From Burkholderiales bacterium (GTDB lineage Bacteria > Pseudomonadota > Gammaproteobacteria > Burkholderiales > SG8-39): a stretch of DNA of 64,000 nucleotides. Location of the stretch: assembly GCA_035308765.1 (NCBI GenBank), contig DATGGA010000025.1, positions 2,576 to 66,575 on the forward strand. The letters are read 5' to 3'. A program made the translations under genes and the position numbers. A model generated the notes under the pieces. The model was not told the DNA's origin. It worked only from the letters and a program-made list of their open reading frames with translations, and ran no database searches. Shown here piece by piece: positions 1,354-28,919 of the stretch; the stretch's first letter is position 1; each line of letters starts with the position of its first letter.

Positions 1354-2757
1354 ATGATGCGATCCATGGCCGCGATGCACGAATTGAATGCGATTCAAGT
1401 TGCAGCGCAATATCAGGACGGCGCGCTGTCGCCGGTCGACGTCGCGCGGGCCTGCCTGGAGCACATCGCAGCCTGGGAGCCGAAGCTGAATGCGATGTAC
1501 CGCCTCAGCGCGGAGGCCATGGCCGAGGCCAGGGCCTCGGAAAACCGCTGGCGCGCGAAAAAACCACTGTCGCCGCTGGACGGCGTGCCGGTGACCATCA
1601 AGGAAAACCTCTATACCAGAGGCGATCCAGCGCCGATCGGCACGATGGCAAACGCCGAGGCACCGCCGCAAGCGGCAGATTCACCTCCGGCTTCAAGACT
1701 GCGCGAAGCCGGCTGCGTGATCCTCGGCAAAAGCACCATGCCCGATTTCGGCATGCTTTCTTCGGGCCTCTCTAGCATCCACGGCATCACGCGCAATCCC
1801 TGGCGGCTGGACAGGAACACTTCGGGATCCAGCTCTGGCGCCGGCGCCGCGGCCGCGGCCGGCTACGCGCCGCTGCACCTCGGCACCGACATCGGCGGCT
1901 CGGTGCGCCTGCCGGCGACGCATTGCGGCATCTTCGCGCTGAAGCCCAGCCTCGGCCGCGTGCCCACCTACCCGCCCTACATCGGCCGCGTCGCGGGCCC
2001 GATGACGCGCAGCGTGACCGACAGCGCCGCACTCATGAACCTGCTGTCGAAGCCCGACGCACGGGATTTCATGAGCCTGCCGTACCAACCGGAAAATTAC
2101 ACCGACCTCGACGGTCTCGATCTGAAGAAACTGCGCATCGGCTTCCTGCCCGACATGAAAGCCGGCCTGCCCGTAAACGCGGAAGTGGCCGCGGCCGCGG
2201 CAGCAGCGGCAAAATCCCTCGCCGCCGCGGGCGCGAAGGTGGAGGAAATGAAGTCCTTCCTCAGCGCGGAACTGCTCGACGGCATGTCGCGCTTCTTCGA
2301 GGCGCGCTCGTACAACGATTACATGCAGCTCCCGCCGGCGAAGCAGGCCAAGGTACTGCCCTTCATCGTCGAATGGTGTACGTGGCGCGCGAAAAATTTC
2401 ACCGGCCGCGACGTCATGGCTGCCTACAACAGCTATGTCGCCTTGCGCGAAGTGACGACACGGGCCTGCGAGCCCTACGATTTCGTGATCTCGCCCACCT
2501 CGCCGATCCTGCCTTACGAAGCTGAGCTGCCCGCTCCAGGCAACGACCCGCACAACGCGCTGCCGCACATCGCCTTCACCGTGCCCTACAACATGTCCGA
2601 GCAGCCTGCTGCTTCGCTCAACTGGACTTTCAGCAAGGATGGATTGCCGATCGGCATACAGATCATCGGCAGGCGATTCGATGACCTCGGCGTGCTGCGA
2701 TTGTCGCGGGCGCTAGAACAGATGCGCCCCGCGCGACTTCCCTGGCCGAGCATCTAG
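1354..2757 (+). CDS. amidase-signature family amidase (GatA-like)
   Basis: 467-aa ORF with the Gly/Ser-rich amidase signature GSSSGAGAAAAAGYAPLHLGTDIGGSVRLPA. The start could be one of the nearby in-frame ATGs (1354, 1357, 1366, 1375). Confidence 0.9.
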   Translation: MMRSMAAMHELNAIQVAAQYQDGALSPVDVARACLEHIAAWEPKLNAMYRLSAEAMAEARASENRWRAKKPLSPLDGVPVTIKENLYTRGDPAPIGTMANAEAPPQAADSPPASRLREAGCVILGKSTMPDFGMLSSGLSSIHGITRNPWRLDRNTSGSSSGAGAAAAAGYAPLHLGTDIGGSVRLPATHCGIFALKPSLGRVPTYPPYIGRVAGPMTRSVTDSAALMNLLSKPDARDFMSLPYQPENYTDLDGLDLKKLRIGFLPDMKAGLPVNAEVAAAAAAAAKSLAAAGAKVEEMKSFLSAELLDGMSRFFEARSYNDYMQLPPAKQAKVLPFIVEWCTWRAKNFTGRDVMAAYNSYVALREVTTRACEPYDFVISPTSPILPYEAELPAPGNDPHNALPHIAFTVPYNMSEQPAASLNWTFSKDGLPIGIQIIGRRFDDLGVLRLSRALEQMRPARLPWPSI

Positions 2758-2758
2758 C

Positions 2759-2793
2759 ATTGTCGTCCCCGCGAAGGCGGGGGCCCGGGTTTT
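2759..2793 (+). repeat. REP-like palindromic element, left copy (ATTGTCGTCCCCGCGAAGGCGGGGGCCCGGGTTTT)
   Basis: Contains the hairpin CCCCGC-GAAG-GCGGGG. It starts 2 nt after the amidase stop codon. It matches the reverse complement of 5310-5344 at 29/35 positions by hand alignment. Confidence 0.7.
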
Positions 2794-2805
2794 GGTCCTA
2801 ACGCT

Positions 2806-3003
2806 TCAGGCCGCGACCTGCTCGTAGTCCAGCGCGGGAAGATCGGCCCTGCGGTTGGCGTGCTCGACCGTGATGGCGCAAATGTGCCCGGCTTCGTCGA
2901 GGTCCACCTGCGTGTCCTCGTCAAGATCCTTCGTTTCCGCAACCGAAATCGGGCGGAACTCAATGTGGAGTGTGTCGGTGCCGAGGAAATATCTGATCTT
3001 CAT
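2806..3003 (-). CDS. DUF2283 domain-containing small protein
   Basis: 65 aa: MKIRYFLGTDTLHIEFRPISVAETKDLDEDTQVDLDEAGHICAITVEHA. This is the typical DUF2283 pattern (Y..e.D.l.i.f......e....v.vD.d..G.i.gieI). It lies 10 nt downstream of the DUF5131 gene on the same strand. Confidence 0.8.
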   Translation of the reverse strand: MKIRYFLGTDTLHIEFRPISVAETKDLDEDTQVDLDEAGHICAITVEHANRRADLPALDYEQVAA

Positions 3004-3013
3004 CGCTGCAACA

Positions 3014-3751
3014 CTATGCCGTCGCTACGCGTAAAGGTAGCACCTTGCGCGGCATTTCGTTGTAATAGGCCCCATTCAGCTTGCGTCCAGTCATATCTTT
3101 CCTGACACCGCCCCACTGTTTGAAAAAGAACGCTACCCCCGCGGCCCGGCACTGCTTCAGAATCGAAGTAACCCATTCACGCTTCATTGGCCGCGCACGC
3201 GGGCCAGACTCGCCACCGACGATCGCCCAATCGATTCCCTGCAGGGAAAGATCGTCCAAAGGCCCGATCAGCGGCTCAAGCGACAGGAAACGAACAGCGG
3301 CGGGCACGGAGCGAAGTCCATCGATCCGTGAAATCACCCGCGTGTCCTCAACGCTCACACCCATCCAGACGTTCTTCGGCCATACAAGCTGTTGCCCTAG
3401 GGCCGCAAGCCGGTCTGCACGCTTCGTTAGCACTTGAAACGTATGCTGCGGACAATCGCGCATCGTGTCGAACACACGAGCGATGTATTCATCCGGAATA
3501 TCCTCATGAAACAGATCGCTCATCGAATTCACGAAGACAACGCGAGGCTGCCGCCATTTGCGCGGAACATCGAGCAGATCTGGATGTAACGTCACCTTGA
3601 ATCCGTTCCGATAGCGCTCGCTCCCCATGGCGGTGAGCCGCTTCGCCATCCGCTCTGCGTAGCAATGCTTGCACCCTTGGCTGATCTTCGTGCAACCCGT
3701 GACCGGGTTCCACGTCATCTCAGTCCATTCAATATTCGATTTTGTCGACAT
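3014..3751 (-). CDS. DUF5131 / phage Gp37-Gp68 family three-Cys-motif protein (PF07505-like)
   Basis: 245 aa. The N-terminus IEWTEMTWNPVTGCTKISQGCKHCYAERMAKRL with C20-x6-C27-x2-C30 is the family hallmark. Later family-typical blocks are VFVNSMSDLFHE, FQVLTKR, FLSLEPLIGP and AIVGGESGP. Confidence 0.88.
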   Translation of the reverse strand: MSTKSNIEWTEMTWNPVTGCTKISQGCKHCYAERMAKRLTAMGSERYRNGFKVTLHPDLLDVPRKWRQPRVVFVNSMSDLFHEDIPDEYIARVFDTMRDCPQHTFQVLTKRADRLAALGQQLVWPKNVWMGVSVEDTRVISRIDGLRSVPAAVRFLSLEPLIGPLDDLSLQGIDWAIVGGESGPRARPMKREWVTSILKQCRAAGVAFFFKQWGGVRKDMTGRKLNGAYYNEMPRKVLPLRVATA

Positions 3752-3796
3752 GTTGTTTACCTCGCCCGTGCACGATAGCGCAGGCGCGCGCGATCC

Positions 3797-4606
3797 TCAA
3801 CCGAACAGCCGCCCCTGGGGCGTAACGTTCGCAATATCCGACCAGAGTTTGTGCGCAAGTTCGTGGCGAGCCACGAACACCAGCCAGTACAAGCCGGAAC
3901 TCTTGCTGTTTTCAACCACCTCCACCTTGTCGTTCGGCGAAGTGCCGAGCCCTTGAATGAGAGATTTCCAGTGCTCGAAGATCGCCAATCGGATAAGTTC
4001 CGGCCGCTCCTTCGTGTCAACCTTGTCGCGCCAGCCCGGCGCAAACAAGTCGAGCTGCTTCGGACCATCCGTCCTCAAGTAGTTGTGGAGATCACGTTTG
4101 AGATCCATGGCACTGACATGGATCAGAAGATCCATGCGCTTCACGCGCGCGAGCTTTTCAATCACGGCAAACGGCAGGTCTCCGAGGTTGTAGGGATCGA
4201 GGAGCGCTAGGTGCAAGCCACTCGGATCGAGCGTCCGGATCACTTGGTCCGCGGTTTCACTAGCGTCGCCGGGAAAGACCCTCACATTGGCCCCTAGCTT
4301 TGCTAGCCTGGTACGTACGGCCTCCGCATAGCCTGAATTAGCATCACCAAGCAGGAACTCCGTGAATTGATCACCGTGACGCCCGCCTGCCTCCCACGCA
4401 ACTAAGGGACTACCATCAACGACTTGGGCGGTCTCCCGGATTCGCGTCCGGCCAGCGCCGCAGTACAGGTCAATGTAAGTCCGGTGAGCAAACTTCCTGC
4501 GCGCGCCGTGCGCACTATCAACGTACTTGCGCAGACGCTCATGTTTGTCGAGTGTCCAAGCTCCCGCCTCGCCCATCGGCAGTCCGTCTGCATCGACTAA
4601 ATCCAT
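3797..4606 (-). CDS. tcmP: three-Cys-motif partner protein TcmP (TIGR04474-like)
   Basis: 269 aa: GAWTLDKHERLRKYVD...YIDLYCGAGRTRI...DGSPLVA...LLDPYNLGDLPF. It sits immediately upstream of a DUF5131 gene, which is the defining gene pairing. A GGAGG SD lies 6 nt upstream of the ATG. Confidence 0.8.
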   Translation of the reverse strand: MDLVDADGLPMGEAGAWTLDKHERLRKYVDSAHGARRKFAHRTYIDLYCGAGRTRIRETAQVVDGSPLVAWEAGGRHGDQFTEFLLGDANSGYAEAVRTRLAKLGANVRVFPGDASETADQVIRTLDPSGLHLALLDPYNLGDLPFAVIEKLARVKRMDLLIHVSAMDLKRDLHNYLRTDGPKQLDLFAPGWRDKVDTKERPELIRLAIFEHWKSLIQGLGTSPNDKVEVVENSKSSGLYWLVFVARHELAHKLWSDIANVTPQGRLFG

Positions 4607-4617
4607 TCGGCCTCCGT

Positions 4618-4637
4618 GGATGTGTTTATATACAGTA
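4618..4637 (-). promoter_or_regulatory. LexA (SOS) box-like site in the tcmP promoter region
   Basis: The minus strand reads TACTGTATATAAACACATCC versus the E. coli-type consensus TACTGTATATATATACAGTA, 15/20 by my count. The left half-site is perfect and the right half is ACAT instead of ACAG. It overlaps TATACT/TATATA -10-like hexamers about 20-35 nt upstream of the tcmP ATG. Confidence 0.3.
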
Positions 4638-4723
4638 TAGCGCCTTAACGCGCCAGCCTGTGTCTAGCTGACATACAGTCGCGCTGTTGCGCACCGGACC
4701 AATCGTCGGCACATTGACGACCT

Positions 4724-5128
4724 GTGAGCCAGCTTCTTATCCAGCAGTACCTCAACCAGCTCTCGACGCTGAAGAAAGTCTCGGGCTCGACGCGCGAAAG
4801 CGTAGTGCGCGAGGCGTTCAAGGACCTCCTTAAGGGCTGGGGCCGTTCGCATGACCTGACCTTTGTTCCCGAGTACGAGATCGAAACCAGGACTAGGGAG
4901 CGGCGCTACGTTGACGGCGCCCTGCTCTACGAATTGCGTGTCCCGTTTGGCTACTGGGAGGCAAAGGACGAGAAGGACGATCTTGAAGCCGAAATCGCAT
5001 ACAAATTCAAGCGCGGCTACCGATTAGCGGATTACAAGAAGAAGGTGATCGCTCTGCTCGCACGCGTAACGACGGTATCGGTCGAAACGCAGCGGATTGT
5101 GGAGGCAATGAAGAAGGCGCCGTGCTGA
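4724..5128 (+). pseudogene. remnant of a large type ISP/IIG-like restriction-modification enzyme (N-terminal module fused to a C-terminal tail)
   Basis: 134-aa GTG-start ORF. The first ~100 aa (SQLLIQQYLNQLSTLKKVSGSTRESVVREAFKDLLKGW...FGYWEAKDEKDDLEAEIAYKFKRGY) resemble the conserved N-terminus of >1000-aa RM helicase/methylase enzymes. No methylase, helicase or nuclease core follows. Recognition is from memory only. Confidence 0.5.
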
Positions 5129-5309
5129 TTCTCGGGGGCCAATTCCGCAGCGATTTTATTGGCAGGAATGGCCGCTATTCATGCCAATAGAATTAGATTC
5201 TCCTTTAAATTCAAAAGACTATTCGTGCCAAAAGATTGGCGCGATTCCCGAAACACCCTCAAATCTCGATCTGTTCCGGCGGCACGACAACGAGATTGGG
5301 TATTTGGGG

Positions 5310-5344
5310 AAAACCCGGATTCCCGCCTGCGCGGAAACGACAAT
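5310..5344 (-). repeat. REP-like palindromic element, right (degenerate, inverted) copy
   Basis: The reverse complement reads ATTGTCGTTTCCGCGCAGGCGGGAATCCGGGTTTT. The plus strand contains ATTCCC-GCCTGCGC-GGAAAC. It matches 2759-2793 at 29/35 positions. Confidence 0.65.
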
Positions 5345-5373
5345 CTAATTCCGGGGGAACGGCAAAGTACCAC

Positions 5374-5982
5374 CTACGCAACCGGCTTCTCCCCGGCGAA
5401 TTTCCGCACGCTCTCCATGTGCGCCTCGTGCACGTGCTTCAGGATCGCGGGCCATTCTCCGTCCGGCACCTGCACTTCATTGGGGTCGGTGCCGGGCGAG
5501 GTCTGGGCGACGTTGCCGTAGAGCGCGGGCCATCGCTGATCGTATCCGCGCGAATTGCCGGCGTCCCAGTCGATCGCTTTCGTCGCGATGGGGACGAGCC
5601 GCTCGCGCCTGAAGTACTGGGACTCGACCAACGTCTTGGACATGAGCTGCCGGAGCGCAAGCATCGCCGCCGTCTGCGCCGTCTTGTCGCGGCAACGCAG
5701 CGCGTCGTAGACGGCGCGAAGGCGGCCGACGTGGTACCAGAAGATCGCCTGCTCGGCATGATCCTCGACGAGCGTATTCGCCAGCGCGTACAGCACCGGT
5801 GGCAGCACCGCCGTGGGCCGGCCCAGCACTTCGCTGATGGCGAGCCGCCGGTCGCTGCCGTAGGCGGGAGCGAGCCGGCTCATTTTCTCGTTCGCCGGGC
5901 CCAGGTCGATCGTGGCGTAGACGCCGCGGAATTTGACCGAGGCGTCTTTTCCGGGCGCCAGCTGCGCGAACGCGCGCGGCAT
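5374..5982 (-). CDS. hypothetical protein (possibly secreted; true start uncertain)
   Basis: 202-aa ORF with coding-like composition, co-oriented with and directly downstream of the M81 peptidase gene. I recognise no family. See the finding about the signal-peptide-like codons upstream of its ATG. Confidence 0.55.
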   Translation of the reverse strand: MPRAFAQLAPGKDASVKFRGVYATIDLGPANEKMSRLAPAYGSDRRLAISEVLGRPTAVLPPVLYALANTLVEDHAEQAIFWYHVGRLRAVYDALRCRDKTAQTAAMLALRQLMSKTLVESQYFRRERLVPIATKAIDWDAGNSRGYDQRWPALYGNVAQTSPGTDPNEVQVPDGEWPAILKHVHEAHMESVRKFAGEKPVA

Positions 5983-6030
5983 GAAGGCCAGCGTGGCGCA
6001 AAAAGTGACGAAGCGGCGGCGGAGAATGGG

Positions 6031-7527
6031 CTAGCCCCGGTACGCGGGCCCGAGCGGCCGCATGCGGACACCCTTGCGCAGCCGGGTCCACTTGAATTCG
6101 GTCGGATCGGCGAGCGCCGGGCCGGGCGACTTCACCACCAGAACCTCTTTCGAAATCGGCTCGAAGTCGGCGCGGAAATGGACCGAGCTCTTGAGCGCGA
6201 GGATGCGGCTGCGGCGCGGCTCGACGCCGAGGTGGCGGAACATTTCCTGGTCGCCGGCCTGGCACTTGCGCGTGGCGAGCGCGACGCGCACGCCGGGGGC
6301 GGCCTTGCTTCGGAGCAGCGCCATGTTGCCCAACTGCATGCGGAAGCCCTTGAACATCGGCCCGGTGCAGGTGAACTTGCCGTCGCCGAGCTGTTCGACC
6401 GTGAATTCGCCTTCGAGAGGGGAATCGCCGGGGATGTTCGAGCGTCCCCCCAATTTGAATATTGAAGTAAAACCCAAACCAATTTCGTGCGCCTTCCTGG
6501 CCGCCTCGCCGTCGATCAGCAGGCCGAGCACCGCGTCCTGCGCTTTCTGCTGGATCAGCGATTTCAGCAGCCCCGTGGTGTCGCCGTTGCCGCCTGCGCC
6601 GGGATTGTCCTGGGTGTCGGCCAGCACCACCGGCTTGCCGGGCTCGCCGCTGCTGCGCGCGCGCGCCACCGCCTCGTCTGGCAGGTGCAGGTCCATCGCG
6701 AAGTCTTTCTCGGCATCGGACACCAGGCCCCACAACCGATCCACCGCGGCAACGGTGTTTTTCTCGTCAGAACCGTAGCCGAACACCGCCATGCCGCATT
6801 CCGGGAAATCGGCCATCGGAAATCCCGGCGTGAAGGAAAGGGTGACGTCCTGGTCGCGTCCCAGGTCTTCGTAGATCGTCCTGCAGGGATCGATGAAGGA
6901 GCACTGCGAAGGCAGGCCCGTCAGGTAGTCCAGGGCGCGCCAGTGCTTCGCCGGCGGCCTGCCGGCGCGGATCATGCGGTCGAGCAGAACGGCGGCGCGC
7001 GCGCCGGTGTCGGCCATGTCAATGTGCGGATAGGTGCGGTAGGCGACCAGCGCGTCGCAGCGCTCGAACATCGCGTGCGTGAAATTGCAGTGCAGGTCGA
7101 GGCTGGCGGCGACCGGCACGCGCGGCCCCACCAGCGCGCGCACGCGGCGCAGGATCTCGCCTTCGCCGTCGTCGTGCGCCTCGGTGACCATCGCCCCGTG
7201 CAGGTCCAGGTACACGCCGTCGACCGGCAGCGCTTTTTTCAACCGGGCAACGAGTTCCCCGACGATGCGCTCGAAAGCGTCGGTGGTGACCTGCGCCGAG
7301 GGGCTCGCCGCGCCCCAGGCGGTAGCCACGAGTTGGTGCCCCTGGGCGCGCAGCGCCTGGATCGCACCGGCAGCGGGAATGTTGGCGCCCTCCACCGCAC
7401 CGAAAACGGGCTCGCCGTACTGCACGCCGGGCCAGCCGCCGCCCGCCTCGAAGGCCGCGTAATCGGCCCTGGACGGCGCAAAAGTATTGGTCTCGTGCTG
7501 CATGCCTCCGATTGCTATACGCGCCAT
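6031..7527 (-). CDS. M81 family metallopeptidase (MlrC-like)
   Basis: 498 aa. The N-terminus MARIAIGGMQHETNTFAP is the typical MlrC/M81 start, and the length fits. Confidence 0.85.
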   Translation of the reverse strand: MARIAIGGMQHETNTFAPSRADYAAFEAGGGWPGVQYGEPVFGAVEGANIPAAGAIQALRAQGHQLVATAWGAASPSAQVTTDAFERIVGELVARLKKALPVDGVYLDLHGAMVTEAHDDGEGEILRRVRALVGPRVPVAASLDLHCNFTHAMFERCDALVAYRTYPHIDMADTGARAAVLLDRMIRAGRPPAKHWRALDYLTGLPSQCSFIDPCRTIYEDLGRDQDVTLSFTPGFPMADFPECGMAVFGYGSDEKNTVAAVDRLWGLVSDAEKDFAMDLHLPDEAVARARSSGEPGKPVVLADTQDNPGAGGNGDTTGLLKSLIQQKAQDAVLGLLIDGEAARKAHEIGLGFTSIFKLGGRSNIPGDSPLEGEFTVEQLGDGKFTCTGPMFKGFRMQLGNMALLRSKAAPGVRVALATRKCQAGDQEMFRHLGVEPRRSRILALKSSVHFRADFEPISKEVLVVKSPGPALADPTEFKWTRLRKGVRMRPLGPAYRG

Positions 7528-26767: not shown

Positions 26768-27403
26768 TTACTTGTTTTCCCCGGGAACGCCGTAGGGACC
26801 TGGTTTCGGCGGAGCGCCCTGCAGGCCGCTGGAATCGTAGGGTCCGGGCTTTGCCGCCGGCCCGCTCGGGGCCACGGGCTCGGCGACAGGAGGCGGCTGG
26901 AAGCCTTCGGGCGGGGCGGGCGCAGCCTGCGAGCGCGCCGGGAACGCGCCTGCCGGCGGATAGCCGGCGGAATCCAGCAGCGCGTCGTAGGCGCCCGGAT
27001 CGAAACCGCTTTGCGCCGATCGTCCCACGACGAGTGCCGGCACCTTCTCCGTATTGGCCGCCTTCTTGAGCTGCTCGAGAGTCGAGGGCGTCCAGACCTG
27101 TATTTCAGTGAATGGCACACCGCGCTTGTTGAGCACGCTGCGCGCCGAATCGCATGCCTCCTTGCAGCCGGGAGCGGTGTACAACGTAACCGGAAAATTC
27201 TTCTGCAGTTCCGCGAGTTCGAAGGGGGGCGGCGCAGCCGCGGGCTTCGCGGTCGCCAATTTCGATTCGCGCACGTCCTTCGCGCCCGCCGGCGGCGTGT
27301 CGCCAAACTGGGTATGTCCCTTCTCGTCTGTCCAACGGTACAGTTGCGCTTGCGCGACGCCCGCAAACGCGACCATGCCAAGCAATATTGCCCGTAAAAT
27401 CAT
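26768..27403 (-). CDS. DUF4124 domain + glutaredoxin-like domain secreted protein with a Pro-rich tail
   Basis: The start is taken at MILRAILLGMVAFAGVAQAQ (ATG at 27403). LYRWTDEKGHTQFGDTPPAG is DUF4124. VTLYTAPGCKEACDSARSVLNKRGVPFTEIQV is a glutaredoxin-like fold with C-x3-C. The track ORF extends 70 codons further upstream into an R/A-rich, non-coding-looking sequence. Confidence 0.75.
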   Translation of the reverse strand: MILRAILLGMVAFAGVAQAQLYRWTDEKGHTQFGDTPPAGAKDVRESKLATAKPAAAPPPFELAELQKNFPVTLYTAPGCKEACDSARSVLNKRGVPFTEIQVWTPSTLEQLKKAANTEKVPALVVGRSAQSGFDPGAYDALLDSAGYPPAGAFPARSQAAPAPPEGFQPPPVAEPVAPSGPAAKPGPYDSSGLQGAPPKPGPYGVPGENK

Positions 27404-27435
27404 GCGCGAATAATACCATTCCGCCCAGCGAACTC

Positions 27436-28365
27436 TCAGCGCTCCTGCGCGAGTTCGCGCGGCAGCGTGAAGACGACGTGCTCGGCGATGCCCTCCAGCG
27501 GCCGCACGCTCTTCGCGCCCAGTTCCAGCAGCCGCTCTATAAGTTCGTTCACCAGCACTTCCGGCGCCGAAGCGCCCGCCGTAACGCCGACCCGCGGTTT
27601 GCCCGCGATCCACTCCGGCTTCAGTCCCGCGGCGTTGTCCACCATGTAGGCGTCCACGCCCATGTTCTGCGCCACTTCGCGCAGGCGGTTGGAGTTGGAG
27701 CTGTTGGGCGAGCCCACCACGATCACCACGTCGCAGCGCGGCGCCATGAACTTGACCGCGTCCTGGCGGTTCTGCGTCGCGTAGCAGATGTCGTCCCGCT
27801 TCGGTCCGCGTATCAGCGGAAAGCGCGCCCGCAGCGCGGTGACGATCAGCGCGGCGTCGTCCACCGACAGCGTGGTCTGGGTCACGTAGGCGAGCTTGCC
27901 GGGGTTCGCGACCGCGAGCCGCGCCACGTCGTCCACTGTCTCGACCAGGTGCATGCCGCCGTCCGCCTGGCCCATGGTGCCCTCGGACTCCGGATGGCCG
28001 CGGTGGCCGATCATCACGATCTCGTAGCCCTCGCGCAGCATCTTCGATACTTCGACGTGAACCTTGGTCACGAGCGGGCAGGTGGCGTCGAACACCTTCA
28101 GGCCGCGCGCCTCGGCGTCGCGCCGGATTTCCCTGGAGACGCCGTGGGCGGAGAAAATCACGGTGCTGCCGCGCGGCACCTCGTCCAGCTCCTCGACGAA
28201 AACCGCGCCCTTCTTCCGCAGGTCTTCGACCACGTACTTGTTGTGCACGATCTCGTGGCGCACGTAGATCGGCGCGCCGCGCTGCTGCAGCGCGCGTTCC
28301 ACGATTTCGATCGCGCGTTCGACGCCGGCGCAGAAGCCGCGGGGGTTGGCGAGCAGGACATCCAT
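27436..28365 (-). CDS. ispH: 4-hydroxy-3-methylbut-2-enyl diphosphate reductase
   Basis: Start at [23 protein letters not shown]. Also present: ...HEIVHN...[12 protein letters not shown]...[13 protein letters not shown]. Confidence 0.93.
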
Positions 28366-28376
28366 AGGGCGAGATT

Positions 28377-28919
28377 CTACGGCTTGCGCAGGTACGCGGT
28401 GTCGAACGCGGCTTCGAGCCGCGGATGGCTGCCGCGCAATCCGTCGATCACCCGCTTTGCCCATTCGAAGTACTCCTGGCGGCGCTGCAGGTCCCACTTG
28501 GCCGGCGGCCGGTCGGCGACATCCCTCAGGTTGCAGATCTTGTCGGCCAGCTTGACCAGCTTGGCGCCCGCGCTCAGGCCCGCGGCATGCTCGATCTGCA
28601 GCCGCTTGCGGTCGGCCTTGGGGAGATTCTGGTCGTCGGTCACCTCGGCGACCATGCCCGCGATGCGGCGGCCGAAATGCTCGACCAGTTCTTCGAAGGT
28701 GGTGTCGGTGTCCTCGATGGTGTCGTGCAGCAGGGCCGCGGCCAGCACTTCGATATCGCCGACGCCACCCTCGCCCGCCAGCACCTCGGCCAGCGCGATC
28801 GGATGGTTGATGTAAGGCGAGGCCTCGGCGTCCTTGCGCCGCTGATCCCGATGCTTGTGCGCCGCGAACGACAGCGCCCTTAGCAGCAGCGCCAGGTTCA
28901 ACTCAGGCGCCTTTTTCAC
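28377..28919 (-). CDS. HD-domain (p)ppGpp hydrolase-like protein (small alarmone hydrolase / Mesh1-like)
   Basis: 180 aa, GTG start: [30 protein letters not shown]...[14 protein letters not shown]...EVTDD. This is the RelA/SpoT-type HD hydrolase signature with no synthetase domain. Confidence 0.8.

Follow-up and report, generated by a model that had tools for sequence, protein, structure and literature searches.

A mobile tcmP–DUF5131 gene pair behind a predicted LexA operator: a candidate DNA-damage-inducible two-enzyme module

Introduction

SplB-like radical-SAM genes and the UDG/radical-SAM pair are known members of the SOS response. RadicalSAM.org places DUF5131 in radical-SAM Megacluster-5-2, and spore photoproduct lyase belongs to the same megacluster 5 (PMC9477430). 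RlmJ is the 23S rRNA m6A2030 methyltransferase; its substrate is an RNA hairpin and it is inactive on ssDNA.

The pairing of TcmP with DUF5131 (PF07505) is itself recognised, as the original prediction for the present locus had stated: NCBI annotation already carries both names for the exact proteins described here, and PADLOC lists PDC-M41/M30 as candidate defence systems. Since these names and listings pre-exist, the novelty of the pair is lower than that prediction held. The literature searched contained no functional study of TcmP, of DUF5131/PF07505/COG4422/Gp37/Gp68, of PDC-M30/M41 or of GMT-wHTH; PDC-M30 was named in two papers and PDC-M41 in none. The new lead is a LexA site in front of the pair across many bacteria, and hence, probably, an action on DNA after damage.

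Results

Locus organization

The window, a 64,000-nt stretch of a Burkholderiales metagenome-assembled genome (MAG), carries an ordinary member of the catalogued two-gene unit TcmP + DUF5131 (Table 1). The three minus-strand ORFs were found exactly as claimed, with gaps of 45 nt (3752–3796) and 10 nt (3004–3013), and the lower GC content of the cassette was likewise borne out (0.54–0.59 over approximately 2750–5500, against 0.62–0.72 in the flanks). Compared with other TcmP/DUF5131 pairs, gene order and spacing are typical; this copy is set apart only by its passengers, the DUF2283 gene and a restriction remnant, and by a one-base change in the operator. Scans for sigma-70 promoters and terminators returned zero sites in 2600–5400, and Rfam and tRNA scans were empty.

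Table 1. Coordinates of features at the tcmP–DUF5131 locus (positions within the window)
Feature	Position	Strand	Description
tcmP	3797..4606	-	269 aa, operon gene 1; RlmJ-like class I SAM-dependent methyltransferase-fold protein
DUF5131	3014..3751	-	245 aa, operon gene 2; phage Gp37/Gp68 family, three-Cys, radical-SAM-superfamily subgroup
DUF2283	2806..3003	-	65 aa small protein; PF10049
Predicted LexA operator (SOS box) TACTGTATATAAACACAT	4620..4637	-	Identified by reading the sequence
GGAGG ribosome-binding site of tcmP	4611..4615	-	4 nt before the ATG at 4606-4604
Type ISP/IIG restriction-modification remnant	4724..5128	+	134 aa, divergent from tcmP
REP-like palindromic element, left edge of low-GC island	2759..2793		35-nt arm
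REP-like palindromic element, right edge of low-GC island	5310..5344		Pairs with 2759-2793

The DUF2283 protein matched PF10049 (43.5 bits against a cutoff of 23; E = 3.7e-11). It had been proposed as an accessory or regulator of the pair, a role that the comparison does not bear out: it lies beside the pair in this window only and is missing from the 53 other loci, the sole exception being one unrelated upstream copy in locus L027. The sister contigs L063 and L064, which hold the pair in the same chromosomal slot, also lack it. The gene is probably co-transcribed with the pair and is a lineage-specific passenger outside the conserved unit. No DUF4258 toxin accompanies it, as stated originally; the gene upstream of it is DUF5131, and 48 nt separate it from an amidase gene.

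The ORF divergent from tcmP is indeed the stump of a large restriction-modification enzyme, matching the N-terminus of Type IIG restriction-methylase profiles (PADLOC REase_MTase_IIG, E = 3e-23, residues 6–100). Its residues 1–99 and 99–132 correspond to residues 1–99 (85% identity) and 994–1027 (88% identity) of an intact 1029-aa Type ISP homologue in L063, by which alignment it is an in-frame internal deletion remnant; the full-length nuclease, methylase and target-recognition architecture is absent from the 134 aa left in the window. A neighbouring restriction enzyme as a general partner of the pair did not hold up, since such enzymes are variable cargo. The MmeI/Type ISP enzyme was rejected as a functional partner: it occurs in approximately four loci of the clade, is intact in L063 and is absent from the same slot in L064. 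The inverted repeats of 35 nt that flank the island, 83% complementary to each other, were considered as transposon ends and rejected as well, since their core hairpin recurs in unrelated loci (blastn-short) and is REP-like. DUF2283, the restriction remnant and the REP-like elements are thus bystanders in a variable chromosomal slot.

Conservation of the gene pair

The tight two-enzyme unit envisaged originally was found across related genomes: tcmP and DUF5131 were adjacent in 50 of the 51 fetched loci with room for DUF5131 beside tcmP. DUF5131 immediately followed tcmP, on its strand, in 48 loci and was convergent with it in two (L029 and L040); in L039 it lay 2.4 kb downstream of tcmP. The genes upstream of tcmP were unrelated between loci, and the tcmP–DUF5131 unit is therefore autonomous. 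Recurring ORFs of 340–360 aa, tried as a conserved third gene upstream of tcmP, were rejected as unrelated housekeeping genes. The pair is spread over Alpha-, Beta-, Gamma- and Zetaproteobacteria. Clustered at 50% identity, the TcmP family has 2,782 representatives, and at least 8,000 DUF5131 homologues were scored.

TcmP has an RlmJ-like methyltransferase fold

TcmP was assigned by TIGR04474 (162.1 bits against a cutoff of 53, residues 17–260). The predicted motif I, YIDLYCGAG, is present at residues 44–52; its nucleotide span is 4451–4477, the 4451–4474 given originally being one codon short. The amino-methyltransferase motif IV, LLDPYNLGDLPF, was confirmed at residues 135–146. The AlphaFold2 (AF2) model (pLDDT 88.4) showed the anticipated methyltransferase fold, in which the SAM pocket is intact, and Foldseek allowed a more precise description as RlmJ-like. 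E. coli RlmJ was the top match in the PDB (E 1e-6 to 3e-5, TM 0.49–0.57), the best chain being 7p9o (E 1e-6; TM up to 0.57).

In an alignment of homologues, K21-H22, D46/G50, S66-P67, D88 and G113/A115 of TcmP were invariant, G52 and D137-P138 were kept in at least 90% of sequences, and position 114 was D or E in most. This set matches K18-H19, D40/G44/G46, S100-P101, E118, D143-G144 and D164-P165 of RlmJ. By manual motif alignment, K18, H19, S100, E118, D143 and D164 of RlmJ correspond to K21, H22, S66, D88, D114 and D137 of TcmP, so that all counterparts of the SAM-contacting and catalytic residues are invariant or nearly so, at congruent spacing. Based on the model and these residues, TcmP is a protein with an RlmJ-like class I methyltransferase fold that has kept the cofactor-binding and catalytic residues of RlmJ.

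At the sequence level, Pfam gave no TcmP match even at E <= 10, the RlmJ family PF04378 included, and PDB searches with the TcmP protein and profile yielded nothing usable. The relationship to RlmJ rests on fold and manual motif matching, because hhalign, run with the TcmP profile on E. coli RlmJ, aligned motif I alone (24 columns, E 0.033). The motifs that TcmP and the RlmJ structures (PDB 4blu, 6qdx, 7p9o) have in common, at congruent spacing, are the K-H of motif X, YxDxxxGAGR in motif I, GSPL(V/I)A, an acidic motif II, motif III and, as motif IV, D-P-(P)-Y; similarity at the HMM level was not detectable. TcmP lacks the inserted helical subdomain and the Y4/H6 tail of RlmJ; peculiar to it are a DxDGLP tail, conserved at the N-terminus, and a C-terminal region of 100 residues. 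Unlike RlmJ, it always comes as a pair with DUF5131 and is subject to horizontal transfer.

PHROGs returned nothing for TcmP, and a search of BFVD returned generic methyltransferases only. A remote TcmP-like protein in Gordonia phage Fairfaxidum was found by profile comparison only (E 2e-4, probability 46%).

DUF5131 is a three-cysteine, radical-SAM-like protein

The assignment of the second protein was clear, with a full-length match to PF07505 (341.8 bits against a cutoff of 28.9; E 2.7e-102). The predicted C20-x6-C27-x2-C30 triad is correctly located within GCTKISQGCKHCY, and the three cysteines did not vary across the 17 sequences of alignment A2 or the 59 of alignment A3. The AF2 model consists of alternating beta/alpha units with the cysteine loop between beta1 and alpha1; the pLDDT of this loop is below 50. 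The order of secondary-structure elements in the model fits a beta/alpha barrel with the three cysteines, but Foldseek gave no significant fold match in the PDB. Weak matches to TIM barrels, spore photoproduct lyase (TMq 0.40, E 0.06) and NifB were obtained, none at E <= 0.001, and PDB sequence searches with the DUF5131 protein and profile yielded nothing usable. A sub-threshold match to TIGR04471 (radical SAM mobile pair protein A) covered residues 15–212 (E 2.2e-25). DUF5131 is a radical-SAM-like three-cysteine protein, predicted to form a beta/alpha barrel, that has already been placed in the superfamily.

The canonical radical-SAM motif CX3CX2C is absent from DUF5131, of which only the C-x2-C-aromatic half is canonical, and the Radical_SAM profile PF04055 gave no DUF5131 match even at E <= 10. 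Together with the low-confidence cysteine region of the model, this non-canonical Cx6Cx2C motif and the unmatched profile count against a radical-SAM role.

That DUF5131 genes are common in phages was substantiated by 181 phage records. The DUF5131 protein of the window is 58% identical to gp42 of Gordonia phage Fairfaxidum, and this similarity therefore suggests a universal substrate.

A predicted LexA operator precedes tcmP

The SOS-box-like site was confirmed as TACTGTATATAAACACAT, 13 nt upstream of the tcmP ATG. It sits directly before the ribosome-binding site and overlaps the likely -10 of the tcmP promoter. Compared with CTGT-N8-ACAG it has one mismatch, the final G being T. The site occurs once in the window (expectation from shuffled sequences, 0.00), and its type fits the Burkholderiales host. 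Since the change from G to T falls in the critical CAG half-site, repression at the window operator may be weak. In sister contig L063 the box at this position is exact (TACTGTATATAAACACAG), and exact boxes were also found in sister contig L064 and before a distantly related variant with three genes, carried by an Acidovorax plasmid.

In 21 of 53 loci an exact LexA box occurred in the 120 nt before tcmP, while approximately 0.16 loci were expected from a background of 22 boxes in 875,622 nt. Counting all boxes matched to the lineage, approximately 33 of the 53 loci had one. The box type tracked taxonomy, with CTGT-N8-ACAG in Beta- and Gammaproteobacteria and GAAC-N7-GAAC in Alphaproteobacteria, in agreement with the published LexA consensus of each group. 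Upstream of tcmP there is thus a conserved predicted LexA operator, its type matched to the host lineage, to which LexA would bind in vivo. About a third of the loci had no recognisable box, an observation which, like the mutated operator of the window, speaks against reading the pair as a LexA-controlled module.

Discussion

The SOS box is the most informative feature of the locus and was underused in the original prediction. Because the operator is conserved and matched to lineage, the emphasis shifts from constitutive self-protection or defence to a function induced by DNA damage. Mobile elements, toxins and some defence genes, too, are typically controlled by LexA, which weighs against this shift. 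Our leading explanation, held tentatively and at somewhat less than an even chance, is a module of two enzymes, inducible by DNA damage, for the modification or repair of a nucleic acid that is probably DNA. Part of the original base-modification hypothesis is carried over, namely the two-enzyme unit, the methyltransferase fold and the predicted three-cysteine barrel, while the role for DUF2283 and the restriction partner are given up.

The gene pairing, the folds, the conserved cofactor and catalytic residues and the conserved operator form the observed part of this explanation. tcmP–DUF5131 would be a self-contained two-gene operon under LexA repression, and therefore switched on by DNA damage, when RecA stimulates the cleavage of LexA. 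TcmP would act as an RlmJ-type SAM-dependent amino-methyltransferase that presumably binds SAM. Its K-H, GSP and D-P-Y motifs may form a pocket for a flipped-out purine, most likely adenine, which the enzyme would either methylate or present to its partner. DUF5131 would be the slowly evolving catalytic core: its Cx6Cx2C triad may hold a [4Fe-4S] cluster and cleave SAM to a 5'-deoxyadenosyl radical. The target of this radical would be the same base, one adjacent to it or a lesion, much as for spore photoproduct lyase, which neighbours DUF5131 in the network. Overall, the module would modify bases upon damage or process lesions directly, of which we infer repair rather than modification.

DNA is taken as the most likely substrate, over RNA, because phage DUF5131 genes are located in replication and recombination modules beside DNA methyltransferases, and because long TcmP paralogues have a winged-HTH (wHTH) domain. 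TcmP's nearest solved relative methylates rRNA, which weighs against a DNA module.

Anti-phage defence is a serious rival, if an unlikely one. The pair, as in the PADLOC candidates PDC-M41/M30, would modify or damage invading or host nucleic acid, and LexA would gate a costly or toxic immunity to stress associated with infection or damage. DUF5131 matched PDC-M41B (3.5e-123) and PDC-M30B (2.2e-117), and TcmP gave weak partial-length matches to the A components (PDC-M41A 1.7e-10, other A component 6e-4); these PDC entries are candidate systems that are not known to have a phenotype. Defence genes (Type IIG, Type III and Type I R-M, DarTG, MADS, MzaA, DRT) were located at most two genes from the pair in roughly 10–12 of 53 loci (approximately 20%), but most loci had housekeeping surroundings with no defence or mobility genes nearby. 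Individual loci also favour defence. The neighbours of the L063 pair include a zeta-toxin-like gene and the Type ISP enzyme in intact form, the Acidovorax plasmid variant is found amid DNA methyltransferase, helicase, GIY-YIG and PIN genes, and the Fairfaxidum TcmP-like gene and DUF5131 adjoin a phage repressor. In S. meliloti, the TcmP gene SMa2243 is listed beside hna (SMa2245) among the higher-expressed genes of the nolR+ strain. Defence genes of Moraxellaceae are under the control of a DNA-damage regulator. Against a defence role, the conservation of DUF5131 is unusually high for an arms-race protein, and tblastn of TcmP against 50,697 phage genomes gave no match.

Stress-induced RNA modification appears improbable. 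Like RlmJ, TcmP would methylate an adenine, either in rRNA or in tRNA, DUF5131 would perform radical chemistry on RNA in the way of RlmN, Cfr and MiaB, and translation would be reprogrammed in the SOS response. The closest solved structure, RlmJ, does act on an RNA hairpin and not on ssDNA, and several radical-SAM enzymes modify RNA. However, the patchy, horizontally mobile, low-GC distribution of the pair is atypical of modifiers of the translation apparatus, and the wHTH domain of the long TcmP paralogues, the phage modules of DNA replication and methylation that hold DUF5131 and its RadicalSAM.org neighbour, a DNA lyase, all argue for DNA.

Least probable is a selfish function as an SOS-expressed anti-restriction or addiction module of small islands, plasmids and phages, perhaps decaying in the window with its restriction neighbour: a low-GC island with REP-like elements at its edges, conjugative-plasmid copies beside Tn7-like and IS genes, partner swaps between tcmP and DUF5131 lineages (L006, L009, L036, L042) and, in the window, the deleted restriction gene and mutated operator fit it, but both window ORFs are intact with all invariant residues, related lineages keep the pair in the same chromosomal slot at 75–90% identity while neighbours come and go, and most copies have no accompanying integrase or transposase.

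Operators that switch type with lineage turn the pair, so far anonymous and hypothetical, into a module that can be tested in the DNA-damage response. They point experimenters to the condition (mitomycin C, UV) and to the phenotypes (damage survival, mutagenesis, DNA nucleoside composition), and the conserved residues mark K21 and D137 of TcmP and C20, C27 and C30 of DUF5131 for mutation. If radical-SAM-based DNA repair or modification were true, the SOS response would gain a new class of enzyme, and the presence of the same DUF5131 enzyme in phages would be explained.

Comparison with known systems

The radical SAM mobile pair A/B (TIGR04471/TIGR04470) is, like tcmP–DUF5131, a mobile two-gene unit. 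DUF5131 scores 89 bits against the TIGR04471 equivalog cutoff of 355, and the partner protein differs.

Spore photoproduct lyase and the SplB-like enzymes (COG1533) have several features in common with DUF5131: the radical-SAM superfamily and RadicalSAM.org megacluster 5, a beta/alpha barrel with a cysteine triad after beta1 (for DUF5131 in the AF2 model), and LexA control in several phyla (for DUF5131 by predicted operators). They differ in the motif, CX3CX2C as opposed to Cx6Cx2C, and the structural similarity is weak at the values given above. Unlike the SplB-like enzymes, DUF5131 has an obligate methyltransferase-like partner.

The UDG-like + radical-SAM pair (COG1573-COG4277) is a two-gene, SOS-regulated putative repair system. 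The families are unrelated to tcmP–DUF5131 at the sequence level, and profile searches of the window proteins gave no match to them. Both systems are two-gene operons that combine a radical-SAM-type enzyme with a base-flipping partner (for TcmP a putative one), which has a glycosylase fold in COG1573-COG4277 and a methyltransferase fold in tcmP–DUF5131, and COG1573-COG4277 is likewise under LexA control in Alphaproteobacteria and other groups. A more specific proposal is one that we regard as somewhat unlikely to hold in full: tcmP–DUF5131 may be a third, previously unrecognised radical-SAM-type branch of the SOS response, LexA-controlled and mobile, beside the SplB-like enzymes and the UDG/radical-SAM pair. 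In it, an RlmJ-like methyltransferase would flip and mark a DNA base on which a spore photoproduct lyase-related Fe-S enzyme would act by radical chemistry, either in lesion repair or in an undescribed damage-induced base modification.

Conserved tcmP–DUF5131 gene pair

The three minus-strand genes of the cassette were located exactly where the original prediction had placed them, with gaps of 10 nt (DUF2283/DUF5131) and 45 nt (DUF5131/tcmP) in an ORF scan of the window. The peptide motifs quoted for TcmP and DUF5131 were present, and the low GC content held as well (0.54–0.59 in the cassette vs 0.62–0.72 in its surroundings). The window originates from a Burkholderiales metagenome-assembled genome (MAG), in which NCBI names the proteins TcmP, phage Gp37/Gp68 family protein and DUF2283 domain-containing protein.

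Coordinates of features in the window and in sister contig L063
Feature	Position (nt)	Strand	Size	Remarks
DUF2283	2806–3003	-	65 aa	PF10049, E 3.7e-11
DUF5131	3014–3751	-	245 aa	PF07505, E 2.7e-102
TcmP	3797–4606	-	269 aa	TIGR04474, 162 bits vs cutoff 53
Candidate LexA operator TACTGTATATAAACACAT	4620–4637	- (tcmP coding strand)		directly before GGAGG ribosome-binding site
R-M remnant	4724–5128	+	134 aa	matches Type IIG restriction-methylase N-terminus, E 3e-23
Imperfect inverted repeats	2759–2793 and 5310–5344		35 nt	83% complementary; island bounds
Chromosomal slot	2757–6031			MlrC-like gene to amidase gene
Exact box CTGTCCAACGGTACAG	27328–27343
Intact Type ISP/IIG enzyme	L063:2784–5873	-	1029 aa

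A scan for TcmP relatives, limited to one genome per species, yielded 53 loci (38–75% identity). Of the 51 with room downstream, 48 encoded DUF5131 directly 3' of tcmP on the same strand and two encoded it convergently (L029, L040); in L039 it was located 2.4 kb downstream. The upstream neighbours of tcmP were mutually unrelated housekeeping genes, and across the 53 loci DUF2283 accompanied the pair in the window only, the sole other copy being an unrelated one upstream (L027). The conserved unit therefore consists of two genes, not three, and DUF2283 was wrongly proposed as its accessory component. The pair is known but uncharacterised, and the window copy is an unremarkable example of it; the novelty had been overstated.

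The DUF2283 gene is an orphan without a DUF4258-type partner or an obvious ribosome-binding site, and begins 10 nt beyond the stop of DUF5131. The window sequence is the only member of its protein cluster, with one NCBI accession, from the Burkholderiales MAG. At four loci (L006, L009, L036, L042), TcmP was 67–76% identical to that of the window and the adjoining DUF5131 approximately 55%, the latter being part of a clade that carries an inserted GWGADG; this pattern points to tcmP and DUF5131 lineages having recombined or exchanged partners. On five long-read MAG contigs (L024, L044, L045, L046, L047), tcmP or DUF5131 seemed broken into two frames, through true pseudogenisation or through sequencing errors at homopolymers.

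Predicted LexA operator upstream of tcmP

The candidate operator TACTGTATATAAACACAT occurred once in the window (0.00 expected) and agreed in all but one base with the exact box TACTGTATATAAACACAG at the same position in L063. The TATAAA inside it could act as a −10, and the G to T change in its critical CAG may make repression leaky. Exact boxes (CTGT-N8-ACAG or GAAC/GTTC-N7-GAAC/GTTC, at most 120 nt upstream of tcmP) were present at 21 of the 53 loci, while the background in these loci (22 boxes in the remaining 875,622 nt) predicted about 0.16 loci. With one mismatch allowed, the number rose to approximately 33. Burkholderiales, Beta and Gamma loci carried the E. coli-type box (e.g., TACTGTAAAAATATACAGTA in L008) and alphaproteobacterial loci the Caulobacter-type direct repeat (e.g., TAGAACAAATAGCGAACAT in L027), each the consensus of its group (PMC9578287; PMC6595937). 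An Acidovorax plasmid carried a distant variant of three genes, whose DUF5131 gene was likewise preceded by an exact LexA box. The operator appears to have been re-invented in the host's own type at each lineage change, a pattern that argues strongly, on comparative grounds, for selection acting on control by LexA. What had been noticed as an SOS-box-like site over the tcmP promoter was thus confirmed as a family-wide, conserved predicted LexA operator.

Five loci without a LexA box (L016, L023, L030, L051, L052) shared a TGGTAGAAT / GGTAGTG-like extended −10, at the position occupied elsewhere by the alpha-type box (TAGAAC...), suggesting that the operator arose from the −10 of the promoter or degenerated into it. 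An exact CTGT-N8-ACAG occurred just once in the window, as CTGTCCAACGGTACAG, 45 nt upstream of an ORF (27388–28815) without a Pfam match. It is probably fortuitous, given its GC-rich spacer and a chance expectation of 0.36 per window.

Predicted methyltransferase and radical-SAM enzyme

The AlphaFold2 model of TcmP, built from 47 sequences (pLDDT 88.4), matched chains of E. coli RlmJ best among solved structures (E 1e-6, TM up to 0.57), followed by generic class I methyltransferases. This relationship was invisible to sequence methods; with the E. coli RlmJ sequence placed beside the TcmP alignment, all RlmJ signatures were found.

Motifs of TcmP and their counterparts in E. coli RlmJ
Motif	TcmP	RlmJ
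X	K21-H22	K18-H19
I	Y44-x-D46-xxx-G50-A-G52-R53	Y38-x-D40-xxx-G44-A-G46-R47
GSP	G65-S66-P67-L-V-A	G99-S100-P101-L-I-A
II	D88	E118
III	G113-D114-A115	A142-D143-G144
IV	D137-P138-Y139	D164-P-P-Y167

Structure and mutagenesis identified H19, S100, E118, D143 and D164 of RlmJ as SAM-contacting and K18 and D164 as catalytic (PMC3814359). Since TcmP has counterparts of these residues, the prediction is that it actively methylates amino groups with SAM as an enzyme of the RlmJ type. Both motifs named in the original prediction, a Rossmann motif I and a DPY resembling motif IV, were correct and are hereby sharpened, the model and motifs pointing to an RlmJ-type SAM pocket with a catalytic dyad.

Clustered at 50%, the TcmP family numbered 2,782 representatives, a sizeable family without informative fusions among the best 150. 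Longer plasmid paralogues carried a C-terminal winged-HTH domain. Plasmids of Burkholderia pseudomallei (L059) and Acidovorax sp. T1 (p1-T1, L060) encoded a three-gene variant of DUF5131, long TcmP (423–427 aa, with a C-terminal GMT-like wHTH, PF22560) and short TcmP, in Acidovorax with DNA methyltransferase, DEAD helicase and GIY-YIG genes on one side and a PIN gene on the other.

In DUF5131, C20, C27 and C30 were invariant in two alignments of 17 and 59 homologues. The model (pLDDT 79.7) showed alternating beta/alpha units with the triad between beta1 and alpha1, in a low-confidence segment, as expected for a cofactor-dependent loop. The modelled order of units and the cysteines would suit a TIM-barrel Fe-S site; the fold search returned weak TIM-barrel matches, among them spore photoproduct lyase (SPL; TMq 0.40) and NifB, none reaching E ≤ 0.001. 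PF04055 did not match DUF5131; residues 15–212 aligned to radical SAM mobile pair protein A below threshold (E 2.2e-25). RadicalSAM.org has DUF5131 as a radical-SAM subgroup of its own, Megacluster-5-2, adjoining the MJ0683-like subgroup (5-1) and SPL (5-3) (PMC9477430). That DUF5131 belongs to the superfamily is thus a curated and plausible assignment, with weak structural matches. At the sequence level DUF5131 is unusually conserved: the window protein was approximately 80% identical to gamma- and betaproteobacterial copies whose TcmP was 58–67% identical, and 58% identical to gp42 of Gordonia phage Fairfaxidum.

Variable cargo around a stable pair

Sister contigs L063 and L064, from related Burkholderiales lineages, shared the chromosomal slot of the window. 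In L063 (TcmP 90% identical), the slot lacked DUF2283 but contained a zeta-toxin-like gene beside an intact Type ISP/IIG enzyme; in L064 (TcmP 75% identical), the pair was alone. The extras in the window were DUF2283 and the predicted stump of a large R-M enzyme. Residues 1–99 and 99–132 of this remnant corresponded to residues 1–99 and 994–1027 of the L063 enzyme; judging from this correspondence, the stump is an in-frame internal deletion with approximately 895 codons gone. The slot comparison indicates that the pair is the stable element, with DUF2283, the toxin-like gene and the restriction enzyme as cargo that varies, so the link drawn to the restriction enzyme was overstated.

The 35-nt inverted repeats were rejected as transposon ends, because their core hairpin GTCGTCCCCGCGAAGGCGGGG recurred in unrelated alphaproteobacterial loci (L019, L031, L034, L035, L037); for the same reason they look like REP elements.

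Defence and phage context

In PADLOC, PDC-M41B and PDC-M30B matched DUF5131 very strongly and PDC-M41A and PDC-M30A matched TcmP weakly, making the pair already a candidate defence system. Within two genes on each side of the pair, roughly 10–12 of the 53 loci had recognised defence genes, including Type IIG, Type III and Type I R-M, DarTG, MADS components, MzaA and DRT. The suspected enrichment near defence genes was thus found to some extent, yet most loci are plain housekeeping neighbourhoods. An SOS-gated defence system would fit the PADLOC matches and the operator; set beside these neighbourhoods, we consider it unlikely, with an appreciable chance of being right.

TcmP had no match in 50,697 phage genomes. 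DUF5131 was encoded by 181, mostly actinophages, often in replication modules beside DNA methyltransferases (e.g., Bakery gp63, a C5 methylase). In Fairfaxidum (L055, genes 42–44), it converged on the gene of a 398-aa "methyltransferase" with remote homology to TcmP (hhalign E 2e-4, probability 46%). The two genes directly adjoined the immunity repressor, with the integrase nearby, as is typical of accessory genes that a prophage expresses.

Proposed function

The autonomous operon, its lineage-matched conserved LexA operator, the RlmJ-type SAM pocket of TcmP and the invariant cysteine triad on a modelled beta/alpha barrel lead us to propose, tentatively, a damage-induced two-enzyme DNA modification or processing system. 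DNA damage would trigger LexA cleavage and derepress the operon. TcmP would flip and methylate, or present, a purine, and the [4Fe-4S] cluster of DUF5131 with SAM would generate a radical acting on the same site. DNA is the presumed substrate, given the predicted regulation by SOS, SPL as a neighbouring subgroup, the DNA-metabolism genes around phage DUF5131 and the wHTH of the paralogues. Stress-induced RNA modification would suit the likeness to RlmJ, an rRNA methyltransferase, and is improbable beside the last three of these observations. A selfish or anti-restriction module, for which the low-GC island and the partner exchange might speak, is improbable as well, the pair being stably kept in its slot in L063 and L064.

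The original interpretation holds in part: its two-enzyme nucleic-acid-modifying pair stands as a prediction, with its methyltransferase and Fe-S features and its SOS box. The value of the result lies in the predicted family-wide LexA regulation, making the function of the pair directly testable. No account of tcmP–DUF5131 as an SOS member turned up in the literature searched; SplB-like radical-SAM genes and a UDG and radical-SAM pair are established ones (PMC8565304; PMC3765255). The motif spacing of TcmP is congruent with that of RlmJ, except for the inserted helical subdomain of RlmJ, which is missing in TcmP.
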